Counted from the first letter of the stretch, positions 47,501 to 57,245 are shown. The stretch is DNA of 64,000 nucleotides from Acidimicrobiia bacterium (GCA_050741975.1 JBOGET010000088.1:1465-65464), one strand, 5' to 3'. Translations and numbers: made by a program. The notes: generated by a model from the sequence alone, not told the origin.

Positions 47501-47578
47501 GTCCCCGGAGATTGGTGCCACAGCTGTGACTTCCTGCGGTTCTGCGAACCGGGGAAACAGGAGGTCGGGCACTCGTGA
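44522..47578 (+). CDS. adnB: UvrD-like helicase / PD-(D/E)XK nuclease subunit, AdnB-like
   Basis: AGAGTGKTTT, VLDEYQDTNPAQ and TVHRSKGLEWD. C-terminal GRIDAVY...IVDFKSGR and CHSCDFLRFC. ATGA overlap with adnA. Confidence 0.8.
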   Translation: MNGFEPSPEQQVILDLGLDTVRIRAGAGTGKTTTIALVIANLVENHGVDPERILGITFTNKAASELAERVKSFLGPTVDEGRQAEVHTYHGFAAQILAEFGALVGVDSRVRVITPTFSRQLLTETYHHTSYNHLDITNVRGLDRIRILGDRMGDHLLTAADVLPHADPSQEVWATRIEMLETLRRYEADKRRLGVVDYSDLVTLSTHLLTRHSELAREIRDRYQAVVLDEYQDTNPAQRVLLSTIFGEGFPVIAVGDEDQTIYEWRGASAENFELFPTHFTRPGGGVAHQRALTLNRRSAPPILEVANEIRRRANPESEALVSHDPARPGQVVTHWATDAVAEADWISRRFEALHQAGTPWSQMAVLFRKNKDFAVVVDSMARHDIPVEVANLGGLLSVPEVADLRAWLTVVDRPEHSAALVQILFGSRYRLGYADIAPLTRWLTGATAEDLDADDVPGLTLLEAIEKVDVIEDLRPEARAGLEHFLDIYREVLTESQGASLVEVCRLILDRTRAWQDVEALPANQRTTARLNLYRLLDLAEEWSPLRGRPSLGAFIDYLDAMEGEPAEELDSAHLSGEEAVTLVTVHRSKGLEWDVVAIPAVTEGSFPGRAQQFPDPTRFAEYLPPDHRIDDALADMPADDKQRMDYFRSQNTLQEWRVAYVAATRARSRLIVTGAYWYGLPEPSVNAKKPSELFELVEQHPVTRDEGRAEEPPRPIMLRPGPGGAAPDPLFETGWDGVLREAVRDEHSLLERARALGVAEECEERVETIRQTLFELDSVGGIEEESEKGRTVSVTGLVTYAQCPKRFYWSEIDPLPRRRSVAAIAGTELHRRIELHQLGQAPFEVLEPGLYDAVDEAVGEGGFKAFLESRYGTERAALVEAPFVIEMESGYQVRGRIDAVYAQGGRWEIVDFKSGRRKDDPSRMVQLQAYALAAAQVDFGLDKPEQIDVSFAYLGGRLDVHTERADEQWREEARRNLEQLTGAIGDDRYEAVPGDWCHSCDFLRFCEPGKQEVGHS

Positions 47579-48174
47579 TCGGTCTGGCGCCAGTCACCGG
47601 CTATCTCATCGGCGCCGTTCCCTCCGCGGCCTGGTTGGGACGGCTCTGGGGGGTCGACCTGAGAAGGGACGGATCGGGGAATCCCGGGGCCAACAACGCC
47701 CGACGTCTCGGGGGCCCCACGCTGGCCGTGCTCGTCTTGCTGGTCGAGATCACCAAGGGCCTGGCCGCGGTGGTCGTCGGGCTCGTCATCGCCGAGGAAA
47801 CCGGGGCGGTGTTGTCAGGTCTCGGAGCCGTGACCGGCAACGTCTACAACATCTGGTATCGCTTTCGTGGCGGCAAGGGGTTGGGCATAACCGGTGGCGT
47901 GCTCCTCGGGCTCTGGCCGGCGGCTTTCCCCCTGGTCGTGGTCAGCATCGCCCTGAGCTCCGCACTGACCCGGTCAACAGGGATCGGGGCGCTGGTCACA
48001 CTGGTGTCTCTCGTCGTCGGCGCCCTGGTCTGGAACCGCTCCGGGCTGGAGAACCCGTGGGGCGTGAGCGATCCCACCGTGCTCCTCCTCATCGCCGCCG
48101 GCCTATGCCTGGTCATCGCCCCCAAACACTGGCGAGACGCCCGGCGCCGGCTCAGCGCACCTGCCCGTCCCTGA
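47575..48174 (+). CDS. plsY: Glycerol-3-phosphate acyltransferase PlsY
   Basis: GYLIGAVPSAAWLGRLWGVDLRRDGSGNPGANNA and GGKGLG. GTGA overlap with the adnB stop. Confidence 0.85.
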   Translation: MIGLAPVTGYLIGAVPSAAWLGRLWGVDLRRDGSGNPGANNARRLGGPTLAVLVLLVEITKGLAAVVVGLVIAEETGAVLSGLGAVTGNVYNIWYRFRGGKGLGITGGVLLGLWPAAFPLVVVSIALSSALTRSTGIGALVTLVSLVVGALVWNRSGLENPWGVSDPTVLLLIAAGLCLVIAPKHWRDARRRLSAPARP

Positions 48175-48642: not shown

Positions 48643-50916
48643 GTGGCCAGAAAACCGGCTGATCCCCCAGAGCTGCTCACCGGCCAACCGGGCTCGCCCG
48701 TCGTCTACCTGCTCGACGCGGCATCCGACTTCGAAGCGTCAATGCTCGAGAAATGGGTGACACGTGAGGTCCGGGGCGAGGTGAAGACGGTCAGGATCAT
48801 CTCGTCCCGCCGGGGCAAGGGCGGCGACAAGGAAGGTTTGGAGCAGGCGCTTGCTTCCGCCGACGACCCGTTCCTGATCCCGCTGCGCGTCGTCTGGCTG
48901 GCACCGGTCAAGAAGGGCCGCCGGATAGTCAGCTGGTGGGATGTGGTCCGGCCCGGCGACGCCCGCGACCCCCGTGGGCTGCGGGCGCGATGGATCCGAA
49001 CGGCGAGGCCGGGCCGGGTCCGTCTCATCGCCGCCGCCGGTGAGCATGCGTCAGCCCTGGCCGAGGACTACGCGGTTTCGGGACAGGTCGACCCCCTGAC
49101 CAACTATGTGACACGGCGAGCGTGGCTGGTGCTCGATCGGGCCGAGCGGAAGCTGGTCGGTAACCGCTACAAGGTCCCCCGTTTCGTGCCCGAGGCGATC
49201 CTTTCCCGGCGCGAGTTCCTCGAAGCGGTGGATGCGGTGGCGGCCGAGACCGGTGTTGCACCGACGGTGGCCCGGGAGAAGGCGGAGCAGTACCTGCGTG
49301 AGATCGCAGCAACCCACTCCCCGTATGTGATCGATCTGATCGCCAATGCGATCCACAAGCTGTACAGCCAGGGATACGGCGAGATCAAGTACTCGGAGGA
49401 CGACGTCAAGCGACTGGCCTCCCTGGAGGAGGGCGACCCGATCGTCTTCCTCCCCTCCCATCGGTCGAACCTCGACCGGCTCAGTCTCCAGTTCATGCTC
49501 TGGGAGAACGACTTTCCCCCCAACCACACCGCCGGCGGGATCAATCTCAACTTCTTCCCGGTCGGGCCCCTGGTCCGTCGCACCGGGGTGTTCTTCATCC
49601 GGCGCTCGTTCAAGGACAACCTGCTCTACAAGACCGTGCTGCGCTCGTATCTCGATTACCTCGTCGAGAAACGGTTCCCACTGGAGTGGTACCTGGAAGG
49701 GGGAAGGTCGCGTTCGGGCAAGCTGCTGGCCCCCCGTCTCGGTCTCCTCCACTACGTGGTCGACTCGATGCGAAGGGGCAAGGCCGAGGATCTCCAGCTC
49801 ATCCCGGTCTCGATCGCCTACGACCAGATCCAGGACGTCCCCGACTATGCGCTCGAGGCACAGGGCAGGGACAAGCAGAAGGAGTCGTTGGGTTGGATGC
49901 TGAGGGCCGTCCGCTCCCTACGGCGTCGCTATGGCGACATCCACATCAGGTTCGGCGAGGTGGTCTCGGCCCGAAGCATGCTCGGTTCGACGGACACCGG
50001 TGACGAGACTTCGGTCGTATTGCAGAAGCTGGCCTTCGAGGTCATGTACCGGATCGGGCAGGTCACCCCGATCACCCCCACCGCCCTGGTCAGCGTCGCA
50101 CTCCTCGCCGTCCACGGCACTGTGACGTCGGCCGAGCAATTGGGCGAGGAGGCGTCCCGCATGACCGAGTTCATCCGGGCCCGAGGCCTGCCCACGACCG
50201 AGAAGCCCGAGCTGCGCCACCCGACCCTGGTAGGCGCCATCCTCGACTGGCTGGCCGAGCATGACAACGTGAGCAGTCATCAGGCGCTGGGGCGAAAGGT
50301 GTTCTGGCTCGACGATGAGCAGATGATCCGCATCTCTTACTACCGCAACATGATCGTCCACTTCTTCGTCAACCGGGCGCTGGCCGAGATGGCGATCGGA
50401 TCGGTGGTCGAGACCGGTCAGGATCAGCCGGCGCAGGTCAGGGAGAACCTGCTCGCCTTTCGGGACCTGCTCAAATTCGAGTTCTTCTTCCCCGAGAAGG
50501 AGGAGTTCATCTCGAACGTCGAAGTCGACATCGCCATCGACGTCCCGGGTTGGGAACGTGTCCTCACCAGCACCGGGGCCGGTGAGGTCCAGGCCAAGCT
50601 GGGGCCCCCGGTCGCCCACTGGGCGGTGCTCCCCTTCCTCGATGCCTATCAGGTCGTGGGCGACGAGTTGGAGACGATGAAGGGCAGGTTCGAGGAGAAG
50701 GCCTTTCTCAAGGCTTGTCTGGCCCGGGCCCGCATGTACCGGATCGAGCAGCGGCTCGTCTCCGGCGAGAGCGCCAGCCAGGCACTCTTCAAGTCGGCTC
50801 TCGCCCTGGCCTCGAACCGGGACCTGATCGAAGTCTCAGAAGGGGTGGGGGAGCGTCGGGCGGTATTCGCCGCCGAGGTGCGCCATGCCCGGGCCCTGGC
50901 CGCTGCCGGGCTCTAA
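48643..50916 (+). CDS. plsB: PlsB-type glycerol-3-phosphate acyltransferase
   Basis: HX4D acyltransferase motif VFLPSHRSNLD, FFIRRSF and YLEGGRSRSGKLL. Confidence 0.8.
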   Translation: MARKPADPPELLTGQPGSPVVYLLDAASDFEASMLEKWVTREVRGEVKTVRIISSRRGKGGDKEGLEQALASADDPFLIPLRVVWLAPVKKGRRIVSWWDVVRPGDARDPRGLRARWIRTARPGRVRLIAAAGEHASALAEDYAVSGQVDPLTNYVTRRAWLVLDRAERKLVGNRYKVPRFVPEAILSRREFLEAVDAVAAETGVAPTVAREKAEQYLREIAATHSPYVIDLIANAIHKLYSQGYGEIKYSEDDVKRLASLEEGDPIVFLPSHRSNLDRLSLQFMLWENDFPPNHTAGGINLNFFPVGPLVRRTGVFFIRRSFKDNLLYKTVLRSYLDYLVEKRFPLEWYLEGGRSRSGKLLAPRLGLLHYVVDSMRRGKAEDLQLIPVSIAYDQIQDVPDYALEAQGRDKQKESLGWMLRAVRSLRRRYGDIHIRFGEVVSARSMLGSTDTGDETSVVLQKLAFEVMYRIGQVTPITPTALVSVALLAVHGTVTSAEQLGEEASRMTEFIRARGLPTTEKPELRHPTLVGAILDWLAEHDNVSSHQALGRKVFWLDDEQMIRISYYRNMIVHFFVNRALAEMAIGSVVETGQDQPAQVRENLLAFRDLLKFEFFFPEKEEFISNVEVDIAIDVPGWERVLTSTGAGEVQAKLGPPVAHWAVLPFLDAYQVVGDELETMKGRFEEKAFLKACLARARMYRIEQRLVSGESASQALFKSALALASNRDLIEVSEGVGERRAVFAAEVRHARALAAAGL

Positions 50917-50922
50917 CGTCGA

Positions 50923-51492
50923 CTAGCCCTTTCGACCCCATTTCTTGCGGGCTTCCTCCACCAGCTCCTGAGAGGTCTTTGGTCGGGCCGGTGCGGGCTC
51001 CTCCTGCGGCGGGGTGGCCTGTGGATCGGCGGGCCCGGGTTTCTCCTCGGGGGGTGGGATCACCTCCTCGAGACTCCGGGCAGGTGGAGGAGACGGCCGC
51101 GGTGCGCCCGGTTCGACCGGCCGGGGGGTAGTCCCGGGAGGAGTCGACGTCGTCGATGCCTCGGGGATACGAGGCGGGGTGAGGATGGGCCTCGGTTGTC
51201 CGGGCCGGCTGGTGGCGACTCTGCGCGGCGTCGTCGTCGGGGTGGGAGAGGTCGGAATCGGGGCCGATCGCTCGTCGATGGTCCGGGCCCGGCGGCGAAG
51301 GGCGCGGCCGGCGACCAACAGAAGGAGGGCCGGGATGATGGTCCCGGAGATCCAGGCCAGTATGCCGCCGCTCAGGCCGAACTCGGCCAGCAATCCGATG
51401 CTGCCCAGCACCACGACGCCGATCCAGACAACACCCAAGAAAGTGAGCAAGCGGCCCAGGCAGCCTACGGGGTTGATGCTCTGCTCGGCCAT
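50923..51492 (-). CDS. Membrane-anchored proline-rich protein, unknown function
   Basis: Three N-terminal hydrophobic helices, then a ~110-aa Pro/Thr-rich low-complexity tail. Sits 17 nt downstream of the ABC permease. Confidence 0.5.
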   Translation of the reverse strand: MAEQSINPVGCLGRLLTFLGVVWIGVVVLGSIGLLAEFGLSGGILAWISGTIIPALLLLVAGRALRRRARTIDERSAPIPTSPTPTTTPRRVATSRPGQPRPILTPPRIPEASTTSTPPGTTPRPVEPGAPRPSPPPARSLEEVIPPPEEKPGPADPQATPPQEEPAPARPKTSQELVEEARKKWGRKG

Positions 51493-51509
51493 CGACGGTC
51501 ATTCAAACA

Positions 51510-52673
51510 TCAAGGTCTGGTGAGGACGACCCTGAGTCGCCACGCCGCCAGCAGGAGAAGCAGGGCGGCATAGGCCGTGAGCACGCCGAGCTCTGGGAGG
51601 ATGTCGATTACCGTCCCGTCGCGCCGCACCAGCTCGGCGAATCCGTCGAGTGCCCAGGCGTGCGGCGTGAGGTGCGCCACCCGGTTCATCGTCGGCGAGA
51701 ACAGCTCGATCGGCAGCATGCAACCCCCGACTGCGGCCAGCCCGAGACTGACCACGATCCCCACGCCTCCGGCCTGCTGCTCGTTGCGGAACGTGGCCCC
51801 CATCAGCATCCCGGCTCCGGCGCCGACCGCGGAGAAGGTGACCAGGATGAACAGGGCCCCCCACGGGTCTCCCCAATCCACCTGGAACATGATGAGGGTG
51901 ACCATCACGATGTACAAACCCTGCACCATGGCCACCGACCATCGCCCTGCTCCCTCGCCGATCACAATGGTCCCCGTCGAGGTCGGGGTGGAGAGCATCC
52001 GACGGGACAGACCCAGCTGACGGCTGAGGATCAGTGCAGCGGAGCCAGCGAGGGCGGTGAGGAAAGTGAACAGGACGAGCTGCTGTGCCGCGCCGAGGTC
52101 GAATCGACCCAGGGTGGGAGGGAAGAGCGCCTCCCCCACCGCCGTGGTCTCCACGTCGAGACCGGGGGCCGAGTCGGCTTGGGCCATGGCCACGTCCAAG
52201 GATTGGTCGAAGGTGGCGCCGGTCTTCTCCGCACCAAACTGTGCCGCCCCGACCACGGTGGTGACCCGGGCCACGTCGGCGGCCACCACCGATTGGAGCT
52301 GCGGGCCGGCGCTGTCGGGCCTGGCGACGAACCCGATCTCGATTTGGTCGCCGTTCGCCGCCTGGTCGCTCATCCCCGAGGGGAGGAACAACCCGGCCTG
52401 GACCGAGCCCCGCTCCACGGCAGTGGTCAGATCGTCCCGGGTCTCGAACAGCGTCACCGCAAGTGAGTCGTCGGACCTGATCTCCTCGATGACTGCTGTG
52501 GCCAGCGGGTCGTCATCCTCGTGATGGATCCCGACAGCCGGGTCGAAGTCGCCCCCGAACTGAGCCCCGATGAGCAGGATCAGGGCTATCGGGAATATGA
52601 AGACGAAGAAGATGTTCGAGCGCTCCCGGAGCATCCGGCGCACGTTGGACCAAGCGATGGCGAGGGCCTTCAT
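51510..52673 (-). CDS. ABC-2 type transporter permease
   Basis: ATG 52673 (MKALAIAWSNVRRMLRERSNIFFVFIFP). One TM, a large extracytoplasmic loop, then 5 TM. ATGA overlap with the upstream permease. The track ORF is over-extended to 53030. Confidence 0.8.
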   Translation of the reverse strand: MKALAIAWSNVRRMLRERSNIFFVFIFPIALILLIGAQFGGDFDPAVGIHHEDDDPLATAVIEEIRSDDSLAVTLFETRDDLTTAVERGSVQAGLFLPSGMSDQAANGDQIEIGFVARPDSAGPQLQSVVAADVARVTTVVGAAQFGAEKTGATFDQSLDVAMAQADSAPGLDVETTAVGEALFPPTLGRFDLGAAQQLVLFTFLTALAGSAALILSRQLGLSRRMLSTPTSTGTIVIGEGAGRWSVAMVQGLYIVMVTLIMFQVDWGDPWGALFILVTFSAVGAGAGMLMGATFRNEQQAGGVGIVVSLGLAAVGGCMLPIELFSPTMNRVAHLTPHAWALDGFAELVRRDGTVIDILPELGVLTAYAALLLLLAAWRLRVVLTRP

Positions 52674-53851
52674 CGGGCCAGTCGCCGTTGCATCAGCACC
52701 CAGGCCACGGTGCCGAAGACGATCGAGAAGAGGAGCAGCGCACCCACCGCGGGGAGCGCCGCTGTCCAATCCGCCCCACCCGAGATGTCGGACAGGCCAC
52801 GCATGAACCAGGCATGAGGAGTCAGATAGCTGACTCTGCTCAGGAACTCGTTGCCCTGTCCGACCGGGAAGAACGTCCCGCCGAGCATCCCCAGGACCAC
52901 GGCAATGATGGCTCCCAGGTTGCCCGCCCCCTCGGGGCTTTTGGCGATTGCGGAGACGAGCCCCATGATGGCGGTGGCGGAGAAGACTCCGGTGACCACC
53001 AGCAAGGCCACGCCCAGGATCGGGCCCCAATGCGCCTCCATGAGGAATCGGGTGGCGACGATCAGCACCGTCATCGAGATGAGGCCGAGGGCGAATGAGA
53101 GGATGGCCTTGCCCGCTACCACGCTGGCATGGCCGATGGGTGCGGCCATGAGACGGGCGAGGGTCCCCTCCCGCTCCTCTTCGAGCAGGCCGAGGACGCC
53201 GAACTGAACCGTGAAGAAGAGGAAGAACACCGCCATCCCGGCGGCGAAGAAGGTCGAGGCGTCGAGCTGGCGGGTTTGCGCGGAGCTGTCGACGAAGCTG
53301 AAGGCCGGCGGTCGCTGGGCAGCCTCCTGACCCCAGGCGACGGCCTCGTCCGGGGGCGGGCCATCACCCAGGGCGATGGCCGTGGCCACCGAGAGCTGGG
53401 CCTGCCCGATCCCGGACCCGAACTCCGAGCCGATGGAGCCGGCCACCTGGGTCGTGGTCGGGCTGTCGACGTCGCCCACCACCTGGATGGTGAAGGGGCT
53501 CCCGGTGAGGGCGGCCTCGCCCAGTCCCGGGCCGAGCACGATGAAGGCGCCTATCTCTCCCCCGTCCATCGCAGCCTCGCCCGAGCCGACGTCCTCGTAG
53601 TCGGTGACGACGAGGATCCCTTCGGACTCGATCTCCCCGAGCACCTGGCCCAGTGATTGCGAGATCTGTGTGTCGTCGAGATCGACGAGCCCGATCTGGA
53701 GGTCCAGTGTCTCGGACACGAAGGCGTTGCCGAATATGAGGTGGAAGATATAGGCCAGCGCCAGAGGGGCAACGATCCCGATGACGAACGCCGAGCGGTC
53801 CCGAAGACGCAGTTTGAGGTCTTTTCCCGCGATCCGGGTCGCAGCGCTCAT
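52670..53851 (-). CDS. ABC-2 type transporter permease (paralog)
   Basis: Same architecture: MSAATRIAGKDLKLRLRDRSAFVIGIVAP..., a large loop, then 5 TM. Confidence 0.8.
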   Translation of the reverse strand: MSAATRIAGKDLKLRLRDRSAFVIGIVAPLALAYIFHLIFGNAFVSETLDLQIGLVDLDDTQISQSLGQVLGEIESEGILVVTDYEDVGSGEAAMDGGEIGAFIVLGPGLGEAALTGSPFTIQVVGDVDSPTTTQVAGSIGSEFGSGIGQAQLSVATAIALGDGPPPDEAVAWGQEAAQRPPAFSFVDSSAQTRQLDASTFFAAGMAVFFLFFTVQFGVLGLLEEEREGTLARLMAAPIGHASVVAGKAILSFALGLISMTVLIVATRFLMEAHWGPILGVALLVVTGVFSATAIMGLVSAIAKSPEGAGNLGAIIAVVLGMLGGTFFPVGQGNEFLSRVSYLTPHAWFMRGLSDISGGADWTAALPAVGALLLFSIVFGTVAWVLMQRRLAR

Positions 53852-53864
53852 CGTCGGCCCACCA

Positions 53865-54803
53865 CTAGTCGCGCAAAGCCTTGCCGGTGAGGTGCAGGAA
53901 CACCGCCTCGAGATTCGGCTCGAAGATCTCCACTCCGGTGATGGTGGCCCCGCTCGAGGCGAAGCAGGCCATCAGATCCGGGAGGAGCGAAGAAGCATTC
54001 GCAGCCAGCACCTCGACACCATGATCCGATGTGCTGGCACCGAACACGCCAGCGAGACCGGAGGCGATCCTGGCGACTTCGGCAAGGTCACCCGTGCCGG
54101 TCACACTGATCCGGTCCTTCTCGCCGACCAGCGATACCAGCTCGCGCCGGGTGCCCTCGGCCTGGACCACCCCTTCGTCGATGATGGCCACCCGATCACA
54201 CAGGCGCTCCGCCTCCTCCATGTAGTGGGTGGTGTAGAGCACGGCGATGCCCTCGCCGGAGAGATCCTCGACCGACTCGAGTATCGCGTTCCGTGATTGG
54301 GGGTCGACGCCGACGGTCGGCTCGTCGAGAATCAGCAGACGCGGGCGATGGAGGAGACCGATGCCGATGTTGAGCCTCCGCTTCATCCCTCCGGAGAACT
54401 CTTTGGTCAGGTCGTCCCGGCGATCGGTGAGACCGATGACCTCCAGGACCTCCTCGACCCTGCGGAACAGCCCGTCCCCGGACATGTCGTAGAGCCTGCC
54501 GAAGAAGCGCAGGTTCTCGGCTGCGGTGAGGTCGGGATAGATGGCCAGCTCCTGGGGGACGAGCCCGATATCGGCTCTTCCCGCGGTGGAATTGCTGCGG
54601 ATCGAGGTCCCGGCCACCTGGACCGAGCCGCTGTTCGGCTCGAGCAGCCCGGCGACCATCGAGATCGTAGTGGTCTTGCCCGCCCCGTTGGGGCCGAGCA
54701 GCCCGAAGGTCTCACCCTCCGCGATCTCGAAGCTGACCCCGTTGACCGCGACCAGGTCGCCGAAGCTCTTGCTCAGGCCGTTGGCCACCAACACGGTCGG
54801 CAT
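53865..54803 (-). CDS. ABC transporter ATP-binding protein
   Basis: Walker A GPNGAGKTT, signature FSGGMKRRL and Walker B LLILDEPT. Confidence 0.9.
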   Translation of the reverse strand: MPTVLVANGLSKSFGDLVAVNGVSFEIAEGETFGLLGPNGAGKTTTISMVAGLLEPNSGSVQVAGTSIRSNSTAGRADIGLVPQELAIYPDLTAAENLRFFGRLYDMSGDGLFRRVEEVLEVIGLTDRRDDLTKEFSGGMKRRLNIGIGLLHRPRLLILDEPTVGVDPQSRNAILESVEDLSGEGIAVLYTTHYMEEAERLCDRVAIIDEGVVQAEGTRRELVSLVGEKDRISVTGTGDLAEVARIASGLAGVFGASTSDHGVEVLAANASSLLPDLMACFASSGATITGVEIFEPNLEAVFLHLTGKALRD

Positions 54804-54812
54804 GACGCTCCT

Positions 54813-56219
54813 CTACGTAGATGCGAGCGGCACCCTACCGATGCTCAGTCCGACCACGGCCGCCTGTGCCCCGGTCGGCTCGGCGCAGCAGAACCAGCTC
54901 TCGGTGAGGCGGGGAGTCGGCGGGGAGTCGGGCATGACCTGAAGCCCCACCCCGGTCATGGCCCCGATCCGGTCCCGCATGAGGGCCAAGGTGTCCCAGG
55001 CCTCCGCCCCGCAGTCCGAGCCTTCGGCGGCGATCGAGTCGAGCTCGTCGTGCAATCGCCCTGTCAGGGCGTCTTCGAACTGCCAGGACCAGGTGAGTGA
55101 TTCCGGCTCGTATCTCGTGAGATGGGGCATCACCGCCGGATGGGTCTCGAGGAGCGATCCTGGTGGGATCAGGAGCTTGATGGCGAGCTGCACCGGGTCT
55201 GTCGCCGACCACAACAGATGGTGGTCGAGAAACGCAACCAGGTCCACCAGGTGCGCGGGCGTGGTCCAGGGGAAAAAGGGAAGCCAGGTCGGTCTGACGT
55301 GGATGCCTGCCGACCGGAGCACCGACACCGCCTCGGACATTCCGGTGGCGGTGTGATTCTTGTCGAGTACCCCCAGCGTGCGGTCGTCGGTGCTCTCGAA
55401 GGCGCTGACGACGAAGAGGACGCCGAGGGCAGCCATCTCCGGCAACAGCGAGGCGTGCGCCAGGACATGCTCCACCTTCGCCGTCACGTCGAACGTCAGC
55501 GAGGGATGGGCGGCATGAGCCTCCCTCAACAAGTCGAGGGAATAGCGGGGGGCGTTGAGGAAGTCCGGGTCGCCGAAGGTGATGTGTTGAATGCCGTCGG
55601 CGGCGAGCTGGTCGATGTCGGCCAGGACCGGACCGGCTCCGACCACCCGCATCCTGCCGTCGTAGAGCACGGGGATGGGGCAGTGACGGCAACGGTGCCG
55701 GCACCCGTGTGACGCCTCTACCGCCGCGGCGAGACGAGCCTCCCCCAGCCACTCGAGCCGGGCGTAGCTGTCGTGTGAGGGCAGACCGGACCGGTCGGGC
55801 CGGAGGAAGCGGGATGGGCCCGTGTGGCGTCTGACCCCGGCGGGGGCGGCTCCGTTCCCGATCTCCCGGGCCCAGGCGACGAGACCCGGCTCGTATTCGC
55901 CGACGATTAGGGCGTCCACAATCTCGCCGAGGGTGCGCTCCTCTCCCACGGAGGCATACAGACCATAGAAGGCGATGGGGAGGTGCGGCCGCTCCCGACG
56001 CACGTTACGGGCCACCGAGACGGCCAGACGCATCGCGGTGTGCATCGGGACCGAGAAGGCGACGGCGTCGACCCCATCGAGTGAGGAGACATCCCAGTCC
56101 TCAACCGCCAGATCGACGGTGCTCACCTCGATGCCGTCCAGCCGGAGGGCCGCGGCCGGGGAGGCGAGATGGACCGGCTGGCGTCCTAGTTCGTAGGTGG
56201 AGACGAGAAGCAGTCGCAC
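54813..56219 (-). CDS. B12-binding-domain radical SAM protein with C-terminal CCAEP tail
   Basis: The N-terminal RLLLVSTYELGRQP... is B12-binding-like. Radical SAM cluster motif HGCRHRCRHCP (CxxxCxxC). C-terminal ...SWFCCAEPTGAQ... is encoded at 54875-54889. Start is GTG 56219 or ATG 56267. Confidence 0.8.
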   Translation of the reverse strand: MRLLLVSTYELGRQPVHLASPAAALRLDGIEVSTVDLAVEDWDVSSLDGVDAVAFSVPMHTAMRLAVSVARNVRRERPHLPIAFYGLYASVGEERTLGEIVDALIVGEYEPGLVAWAREIGNGAAPAGVRRHTGPSRFLRPDRSGLPSHDSYARLEWLGEARLAAAVEASHGCRHRCRHCPIPVLYDGRMRVVGAGPVLADIDQLAADGIQHITFGDPDFLNAPRYSLDLLREAHAAHPSLTFDVTAKVEHVLAHASLLPEMAALGVLFVVSAFESTDDRTLGVLDKNHTATGMSEAVSVLRSAGIHVRPTWLPFFPWTTPAHLVDLVAFLDHHLLWSATDPVQLAIKLLIPPGSLLETHPAVMPHLTRYEPESLTWSWQFEDALTGRLHDELDSIAAEGSDCGAEAWDTLALMRDRIGAMTGVGLQVMPDSPPTPRLTESWFCCAEPTGAQAAVVGLSIGRVPLAST

Positions 56220-56257
56220 TCGTTCAGTGTAAGACAGGCCTCGGGTAGCCTCCGGCC

Positions 56258-57142
56258 GTGGGCTCATACGTCGAGACTCCTCAGGGACTGGTCCACGAAG
56301 TCGACTTCGGTGGCTCCGGCCCCAACCTGGTCCTGATCCACGGGCTTGGCGGGTCCACCCTCAATTGGAACGCCGTCGCCCCCTCGCTGGCCGAAACCGG
56401 ACGGGTCAGGGCCATCGATCTCCCCGGTTTCGGGCTGACACCGCCGCGCCCCGACTTCCGCCTCGTCACACACCGCGATTCTGTGGTCGGTTATCTCGAG
56501 ACCATGAATGGCCCTTTCACCTTGATCGGCAACTCGACGGGCGGGCTCCTCTCGGAGATGATCGCCGCCCATCGCCCCGATCTGGTCGAGCGACTGATGC
56601 TGGTCTCGCCCGCCACGCCGCCGTTGCTACCAGACCCGCGGCTCGACTGGCCGACAGTGATCCGTCTCGCCATCCAGGCGACCCCACTGCTCGGAGAGAT
56701 CTACGGACGCCACTTCATCCGCAGCAACAGTCCCGAGGAACTGGTGCGAAAGACCCTGGCCATGGTCACCCACAAGCCGGGTCGGGTGCCGATGGAGCTG
56801 ATCGAGGACTCTCGGGAGATGGCCCGGGTCCGCAAGCTCCTGCCCTGGGCGGAATATGCCACGGCGAGGACCGCTACCTCGATCGCCGCCCTCTATGCCC
56901 GGCGCTCCGTATTCTGCGCGATGATCGAGGCGATCCGGGCACCGACCCTGGTCGTCCAGGGGTTGTCCGATCACATCGTCTCCCCGACCGCAGTCGAATG
57001 GCTCTGCTCACTCCGACCCGAATGGGACCTGGTCCAGATGAGCGACACGGGCCACACCCCGCAGATGGACGCCCCACTTCGCTTCGTCGAAGTGGCCAGG
57101 AACTGGCTGGTGCCGGCCGAACGCCCCGCAGTCGGGGTCTGA
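56258..57142 (+). CDS. Alpha/beta-fold hydrolase
   Basis: VLIHGLGGS and nucleophile elbow GNSTGG, with C-terminal DTGHTPQMD. Confidence 0.75.
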   Translation: MGSYVETPQGLVHEVDFGGSGPNLVLIHGLGGSTLNWNAVAPSLAETGRVRAIDLPGFGLTPPRPDFRLVTHRDSVVGYLETMNGPFTLIGNSTGGLLSEMIAAHRPDLVERLMLVSPATPPLLPDPRLDWPTVIRLAIQATPLLGEIYGRHFIRSNSPEELVRKTLAMVTHKPGRVPMELIEDSREMARVRKLLPWAEYATARTATSIAALYARRSVFCAMIEAIRAPTLVVQGLSDHIVSPTAVEWLCSLRPEWDLVQMSDTGHTPQMDAPLRFVEVARNWLVPAERPAVGV

Positions 57143-57245
57143 TGGCCCTGGCCGGCAAAGACCCCCTCCAGCCCTTCGGGCCACCTCCCCCAACATCGCT
57201 TCGCTCCTGGGTGGAGAAACACGGGCACTAACTAGGATTGGCCTC

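Follow-up and report, generated by a model that had tools for sequence, protein, structure and literature searches.

We analysed a stretch of 64,000 nucleotides (nt) of DNA (JBOGET010000088.1:1465-65464, here called the window), whose matching records name an Acidimicrobiia metagenome-assembled genome as their source, and examined a radical S-adenosylmethionine (SAM) enzyme encoded on its minus strand ahead of an ATP-binding cassette (ABC) exporter of the ABC-2 type. Judged by its sequence, the enzyme is a peripheral Cys-Cys version of the CUAEP/CCAEP-tail family, which is the sister family of ArsL, and ArsL is its closest characterised relative, a kinship that was missed in a preliminary description of the locus. 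The best explanation of the whole, to which we give a probability just short of even, is an ArsL-like enzyme with a substrate-presenting dyad in its C-terminal tail and, possibly, a product-exporting ABC-2 pump. The enzyme and its landmarks are the following.

54813-56219, minus strand: radical SAM enzyme with CCAEP tail, ArsL-like, 468 amino acids (aa) (NF040546, 477 bits; the longest open reading frame, ORF, reaches an ATG at 56267)
55881-56195, minus strand: N-terminal Rossmann-type B12-binding-like domain (PF02310, 33.9 bits; fold match to AprD4, 6fd2)
55680-55703, minus strand: CRHRCRHC, an instance of the CxxxCxxC [4Fe-4S] cluster-binding motif (direct translation)
54873-54902, minus strand: tail ESWFCCAEPT, with the Cys-Cys dyad TGC TGC at 54885-54890 (direct translation)

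Translation most likely starts at the GTG at 56219, which yields a 468-aa product that matches an identical 468-aa protein in an NCBI record (P0001) and agrees with the family N-terminus MxxLLxSTYELG. A start at the ATG at 56267 would run 10 nt into the divergent hydrolase gene, and only the GTG leaves a spacer of 38 nt between the two genes. The divergent hydrolase placed about 40 nt away by the preliminary description is thus correct for the GTG start, while the ATG start would turn the gap into an overlap.

Family membership was assessed with NCBIfam and Pfam profile models. The best NCBIfam model was NF040546 (CUAEP/CCAEP-tail radical SAM (seleno)protein), on which the 484-aa form scored 477.5 bits and the 468-aa form 477.2 bits; both lie below the curated cut-off of 500 bits, yet this is the top family by a wide margin. 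The family named in the preliminary description was therefore recovered as best match and with its motif in place, though at a score under the cut-off. Scores on this model were 474-506 bits across the window lineage, which straddles the cut-off, and 565-620 bits among core members. The runner-up was the ArsL model NF040542 (244.8 bits), whose cut-off of 450 bits places the window protein outside ArsL proper; the ArsL protein itself scored 345 bits on the CUAEP model. In Pfam, the B12-binding domain PF02310 (33.9 bits, cut-off 32.1) and Radical_SAM PF04055 both exceeded gathering thresholds. An exhaustive search of representatives clustered at 50% identity gave 308 clusters at E ≤ 1e-30, and in a neighbour-joining tree rooted on ArsL, a crude tree of 33 sequences drawn without bootstrap support, the window protein was nested within the family among Cys and Sec (selenocysteine) forms. 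One apparent relative, P0228 (7950 aa, 64 matched stretches), was discarded as an unrelated repetitive sequence with no CxxxCxxC, apparently an artefact of low complexity or repeats. The three cysteines of CxxxCxxC were invariant in our alignment of the family with ArsL (alignment A1), and the window protein has in common with the family its architecture of three parts, its cluster loop GCxHxCxHCP and a tail of the form ExWFC[C/U]AEPT. The literature searched held no characterisation of the CUAEP/CCAEP family and no Sec-containing radical SAM enzyme with transfer of a 3-amino-3-carboxypropyl group, in line with the earlier statement that no substrate has been assigned.

The tail motif ESWFCCAEPT was identical in the 120 closest homologues save two with CCSEP, and ExW[FY]C[C/U]AEP was invariant or nearly so family-wide. 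Direct translation of the window recovered both CRHRCRHC and FCCAEPT as described previously; the TGC TGC pair is real but sits one position further along than the 54884-54889 given for it, and FCCAEPT is followed by 19 residues to the C-terminus, not 20. At the DNA level, 60 of the 80 motif-bearing loci had TGA at the second dyad position, with the frame running on as AEPT..Q. The family therefore consists mainly of Cys-Sec selenoproteins, and the window protein is the Cys-Cys form. Examples of the selenoprotein genes are found in L005-L086 (L007:2637 and L061:11335, for instance). Sec is the second residue of the family dyad (C-U), and not the first, where the preliminary description had placed it. 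Approximately 36 of the best 150 cluster representatives (P0130, P0133 and P0141 among them) stop exactly at ...W[F/Y]C, cut at the in-frame UGA. Since these representatives stand in public protein sets with ends at ...WFC or ...WYC, gene callers systematically remove the functionally critical tail. Separately, a set of relatives (P0209, P0217, P0221, P0227, P0240 and P0176) has a tail, WFCCAAP, that is shorter and stops a few residues past the dyad; this subgroup scored only ~341 bits on NF040546 and may form a further class of tail, the third after CUAEP/CCAEP and RCCLKC.

ArsL, which makes the C-As bond of arsinothricin, splits SAM at the C-gamma-S bond and moves the 3-amino-3-carboxypropyl group onto arsenite; the cysteines of its RCCLKC tail bind As(III), and product formation depends on them while SAM cleavage does not (bioRxiv 10.1101/2024.02.01.577332; 10.64898/2026.04.29.721666). 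It has been described as the only radical SAM enzyme that has the canonical CxxxCxxC and is shown to cleave SAM at this bond. In alignment A1, ArsL aligned with the family from end to end, and the CC of RCCLKC shared a column with the family dyad. The window protein and ArsL share full-length homology at ~30% identity, the same N-terminal domain and radical SAM core, a vicinal CC at the equivalent tail position and a gene that lies in an operon with an exporter.

Because of this full-length alignment with CC in the dyad column, the tail probably offers the active site a thiophilic substrate atom, which by analogy with ArsL is the strongest mechanistic lead at this locus. Under the same analogy, the [4Fe-4S]/SAM core would most likely cleave SAM reductively, and cleavage may fall at C-gamma-S to give a 3-amino-3-carboxypropyl fragment. 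In an AlphaFold2 model of the enzyme (predicted local distance difference test, pLDDT, 93.5; predicted template modelling score, pTM, 0.92), the tail region had a pLDDT of ~80, and the tail is modelled as docked rather than disordered. The docked tail would present the thiophilic atom gripped by the Cys-Cys dyad (Cys-Sec in most relatives), and a carbon-heteroatom bond would form on this tail-held atom, to yield a small molecule that resembles an amino acid. The ABC-2 pump and the small membrane protein may carry this product out of the cell or shield its producer, the part that ArsQ plays for arsinothricin.

The genes that accompany the enzyme were arranged as in the preliminary description, with five tightly packed minus-strand ORFs (54813-56267, taken to the longest start, 53865-54803, 52670-53851, 51510-52673 and 50923-51492) separated by 9, 13, -4 and 17 nt down the operon. 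Those downstream of the enzyme, together with the flanking context genes, are listed here.

53865-54803, minus strand: ABC ATPase of DrrA/NodI type (PF00005; TIGR01188 drrA, 291.6 bits, cut-off 312.45)
52670-53851, minus strand: ABC-2 permease 1 (ABC2_membrane_3; PF12698, 6.6e-35)
51510-52673, minus strand: ABC-2 permease 2 (PF12698, 8.4e-31)
50923-51492, minus strand: small Pro-rich membrane protein (matches no Pfam or NCBIfam family)
56220-56257, no strand: divergent spacer of 38 nt between the radical SAM and hydrolase genes (from ORF coordinates)
56258-57142, plus strand: alpha/beta hydrolase, divergent, a context gene (PF00561)
48643-50916, plus strand: PlsB-like glycerol-3-phosphate acyltransferase, convergent, a context gene (NF002886, 669 bits, cut-off 721)

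The 9-nt gap between the radical SAM and ATPase genes holds AGGAG, a Shine-Dalgarno sequence, and because of this short gap co-transcription of the radical SAM and ABC genes in the window is, on sequence grounds, very likely. The stop codon of permease 1 and the start of permease 2 share a 4-nt ATGA overlap, and both permeases matched PF12698/PF01061 in Pfam. In the best explanation the radical SAM gene thus stands at the head of an operon whose genes are translationally coupled. One ATPase and two permeases in a single operon is the arrangement of DrrAB/NodIJ-type ABC-2 exporters, although the window proteins score under every curated cut-off and the likeness gives no pointer to a substrate.

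We assessed how widely this arrangement is kept by scanning metagenomes with the window protein, which returned 80 loci, 70 of them with enough downstream sequence. An ABC ATPase followed the radical SAM gene within 150 nt in 47 of these 70 loci (enzyme identity to the window 49-79%) and came after one extra gene of ~190-200 aa in three (53-58%). Seven loci (45-48%) had an ATP-grasp gene immediately upstream and no ABC genes, with Nfu divergent in at least four, and the remaining 13 (48-63%) had neither ABC nor ATP-grasp genes. The extra gene, seen in one sublineage (L122:5540-6109, L126:1382-1990, L152:1598-2200 and L144 at about 1380-2370), encodes a product that begins MSTIDQQEARG... or MPSDDQTQFDP... 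and is apparently a membrane protein; in L152 it comes directly after the radical SAM gene. When permease homologues (~61% identity) were used as bait, they led to the same block of at least 10 genes, in the order JAB-aceE-hydrolase, radical SAM-ATPase-permease-permease-small protein, plsB-dtd-plsY-addAB. The PlsB-like gene, equally placed in L001-L003, L167, L168 and many of L087-L161, marks the downstream edge of the block. The arrangement is not due to chance, since its gene order repeats across related contigs by the dozen. For L165, one of the seven ATP-grasp loci, those close homologues of the ATP-grasp gene (60-87% identity) that came with a named source carried the label Acidimicrobiales, and the long contigs that bear the window lineage held none of the best 120 of 7328 ATP-grasp matches.

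Beyond this lineage, a scan of one genome per species gave at least 586 relatives in at least 10 phyla, from which 80 loci were kept (Acidobacteriota, Chloroflexota, Gemmatimonadota, Planctomycetota, Nitrospirota, Methylomirabilota, Poribacteria, Myxococcota and others) and combined with three further loci to make 83; neighbouring genes were identified by tblastn and by a gene caller filtered on G+C content at third codon positions (GC3). Homologues of the window-type ATPase, permeases, Pro-rich protein, hydrolase and PlsB-like protein were beside the enzyme in none of the 83. Instead, the genes found within 1.5 kb were an ATP-grasp L-amino-acid-ligase-like gene (31 of 83 loci; PF13535 with LAL_C2, nearest named models DdaF and BacD), an Nfu-type Fe-S carrier (26 of 83), YggX (20 of 83, always immediately upstream), DUF169 (11 of 83) and a formyltransferase (11 of 83). 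Most of the NF040546 family has Sec at the second dyad position, and its usual neighbours are ATP-grasp, Nfu, YggX and DUF169 genes; the window enzyme has Cys at this position and lies in an ABC-2 operon instead. In Blastocatellia (L007, L014, L019, L022 and L024), the ATP-grasp, radical SAM and Nfu genes were followed by a convergent Atg22-like major facilitator superfamily transporter (PF11700), a second and unrelated transporter type near a family member. DUF169 (PF02596) was an immediate neighbour in Nitrospirota and Planctomycetota (L015, L020, L027-L029, L078, L080 and L082), and a Tara Oceans preprint places a DUF169 gene beside hgcA-like genes of Nitrospina, with merR and a YHS protein (10.1101/648329), a context that gives a weak hint of a heavy-metal theme.

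Several observations weigh against an ArsL-like enzyme that is coupled to the exporter. The window tail is CCAEP with two cysteines, where that of ArsL is CCxxC with three, so the dyad supplies two chalcogen ligands only, compared to the three cysteines with which ArsL holds As(III). Just ahead of the third cluster cysteine, the window protein has His and ArsL has Tyr. ArsL genes occur in a context of ars genes, whereas the window locus is without adjacent arsM, arsQ or arsR, and over ~170 loci the surroundings of the enzyme show no recurrent genes of ars, mer or other metal(loid) type. A Cys-Sec tail would also fit a redox shuttle. With regard to the exporter, its adjacency is one evolutionary event, vertically inherited within one lineage, and because what recurs is a single inherited block of at least 10 genes, the recurrence is not independent functional evidence. 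At least five of the loci with neither ABC nor ATP-grasp genes (L113-115, L118 and L120) consist of hydrolase, radical SAM enzyme, small membrane protein and PlsB, and since the enzyme was kept there without the cassette, the cassette is dispensable for its retention; in the three loci with an extra gene, that gene is wedged between enzyme and ABC genes. The usual family partners (ATP-grasp ligase, Nfu, YggX and DUF169) had no tblastn match at E < 1e-6 in the 64-kb window, and likewise none in L001-L003.

These data bear first on the alternative that the ABC-2, Pro-rich and hydrolase genes are mere neighbours in a core block, in which case the pump would serve an unrelated housekeeping efflux while the enzyme acts as described above. 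We regard this as a strong contender, if one that falls somewhat below an even probability. The linkage was missing from all 83 outside loci and from the seven sister loci of Acidimicrobiales type (those with ATP-grasp), so that the conserved association with ABC-2 transporters anticipated in the preliminary description does not exist at the family level, an outcome which that description had itself named as contrary to its proposal. The whole region is syntenic over at least 10 genes, the window is an ordinary core-genome, housekeeping region of uniform GC content (SMC, RecG, PlsX, AddAB-like, PlsY, Dtd and AceE genes), the cassette is absent from at least five loci that keep the enzyme gene, and an extra gene is inserted in three. 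The short gap with its Shine-Dalgarno sequence, on the other hand, argues for co-transcription, adjacency was kept down to 49% enzyme identity, and there is precedent in the operons of ArsL, which also carry exporters of varied, unrelated families (PMC8552651). Functional coupling between enzyme and exporter stands at roughly even odds, and a lineage-specific 'metabolite plus exporter' module is plausible.

A second alternative concerns the chemistry, with the dyad acting as a redox shuttle or hydrogen-atom donor in canonical 5'-deoxyadenosyl chemistry, by which a small molecule might be dehydrated or reduced in the manner of AprD4. Models for such a role would be the Gly-Cys-Sec-Gly tail of thioredoxin reductase and the C-terminal Cys pair of ribonucleotide reductase. 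In its favour are the Sec that most members carry in the dyad, which suggests redox catalysis, the conservation of two chalcogen ligands only and the absence of metal(loid) genes from the neighbourhoods examined. The fold points the same way, since the closest structural neighbour is AprD4, a radical SAM 1,2-diol dehydratase. The top fold neighbours of the AlphaFold2 model in the PDB were AprD4, OxsB, TsrM and MiaB, with no ArsL structure among the structures compared; the N-terminal domain matched AprD4 6fd2 best (template modelling (TM) score 0.65), and matches to AprD4, OxsB, TsrM and TokK had TM scores of 0.53-0.67 at sequence identities of 13-21%. A sequence search of the PDB with the single window protein gave zero matches, and a profile search gave only distant B12-type radical SAM, MiaB and AprD4 entries. 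The likeness lies in a Rossmann-like N-terminal domain and a partial TIM barrel, and such a fold match does not amount to membership; AprD4 and the class B enzymes are without the Cys-Cys or Cys-Sec tail of the window protein. Against redox chemistry, sequence scores place the enzyme far nearer ArsL (245-345 bits) than AprD4 (21.5 bits), the dyad occupies the column of the substrate-binding CC of ArsL, and a survey by Haft found CU dyads mainly in heavy-metal-handling proteins (10.1101/2022.07.06.499078). We consider the redox role unlikely.

The same fold matches, which include OxsB, TsrM, TokK, CysS and MgmA, together with the Pfam B12-binding match, could suggest a cobalamin-dependent class B radical SAM methyltransferase. 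This is very improbable, since the B12 match is marginal (33.9 vs 32.1 bits), the methylase models, class B included, and those of BchE and HpnR type in NCBIfam all scored below 32 bits, and assays of its closest relative, ArsL, showed activity with no cobalamin added (bioRxiv 10.1101/2024.02.01.577332).

The weakest reading, a maturase for a ribosomally synthesised and post-translationally modified peptide (RiPP) with ABC export of the modified peptide, is more improbable again and was rejected because the locus has neither space for a precursor gene (gaps of 9, 13, -4, 17 and 38 nt) nor a SPASM, twitch or RRE domain (Pfam found only PF02310 and PF04055), despite the superficially RiPP-like pairing of radical SAM and ABC-2 pump genes and weak SagH-family matches of the permeases (82 and 61 bits, cut-off 450). 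The one gap of ~100 nt, after the hydrolase (57143-57245), held no free-standing small ORF, and the earlier observation that no precursor peptide lies beside the enzyme was upheld by the search of the gaps, while the resemblance to a RiPP module drawn from the same locus was not. No precursor-like small conserved ORF recurred across the loci, where the only recurrent small neighbour was a ~107-aa YggX homologue (PF04362), and ArsL, the nearest relative with a known activity, has an inorganic ion as its substrate. By analogy, a small molecule with its exporter, as in arsQML, is the more apt comparison.

Among the remaining genes of the block, the Pro-rich protein has, in an alignment of its homologues, a GCLGR two-helix N-terminal anchor, a juxtamembrane stretch rich in Arg, a Pro-rich linker that varies and a C-terminal PKTSxE(L/M)(V/I)(E/D)EARxKWG that is invariant across the lineage. 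Its gene stays beside that of the radical SAM enzyme where the ABC genes are missing, and its stop codon lies 6 nt from that of the PlsB-like gene. The hydrolase gene was present in most lineage loci, at 39-150 nt from the radical SAM gene; L003 and L158 are without it, and no other clade has it. PlsY (47575-48174) and the PlsB-like protein (48643-50916) place two glycerol-3-phosphate acyltransferase systems within 3.4 kb; between their genes, on the opposite strand, is a D-tyrosyl-tRNA deacylase gene that overlaps the end of plsY by 23 nt, an arrangement kept across the window lineage. Rfam at gathering scores detected zero RNA elements or riboswitches in the whole window, a scan for sigma-70-like consensus promoters found none, the 38-nt divergent spacer included, and a scan for terminator-like sites found four, every one intragenic.

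Taken to the whole CUAEP/CCAEP family (at least 586 species-level genomes in at least 10 phyla), the ArsL comparison would imply enzymes of ArsL type that form a carbon-chalcogen or carbon-metalloid bond on a tail-borne atom, with a 2-amino-4-X-butanoate product that is passed to an ATP-grasp ligase in most phyla and exported by an ABC-2 pump in the Acidimicrobiia lineage. This extension is speculative, and we hold it to be improbable as a whole; if true, it would add a new, environmentally widespread organo-element metabolite. Our analysis corrects the impression of a general link between the family and exporters, and indicates that its conserved, real partners are the ATP-grasp ligase together with Nfu and YggX, proteins of the Fe-S carrier or repair type. 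The much larger and mostly selenoprotein sister family of ArsL thereby gains handles for its study, with the tail dyad as a candidate substrate-presenting element and the window enzyme as a natural all-cysteine version whose expression in E. coli needs no selenocysteine machinery. Should the exporter really be coupled to the enzyme, the Acidimicrobiia lineage would point to a secreted product.

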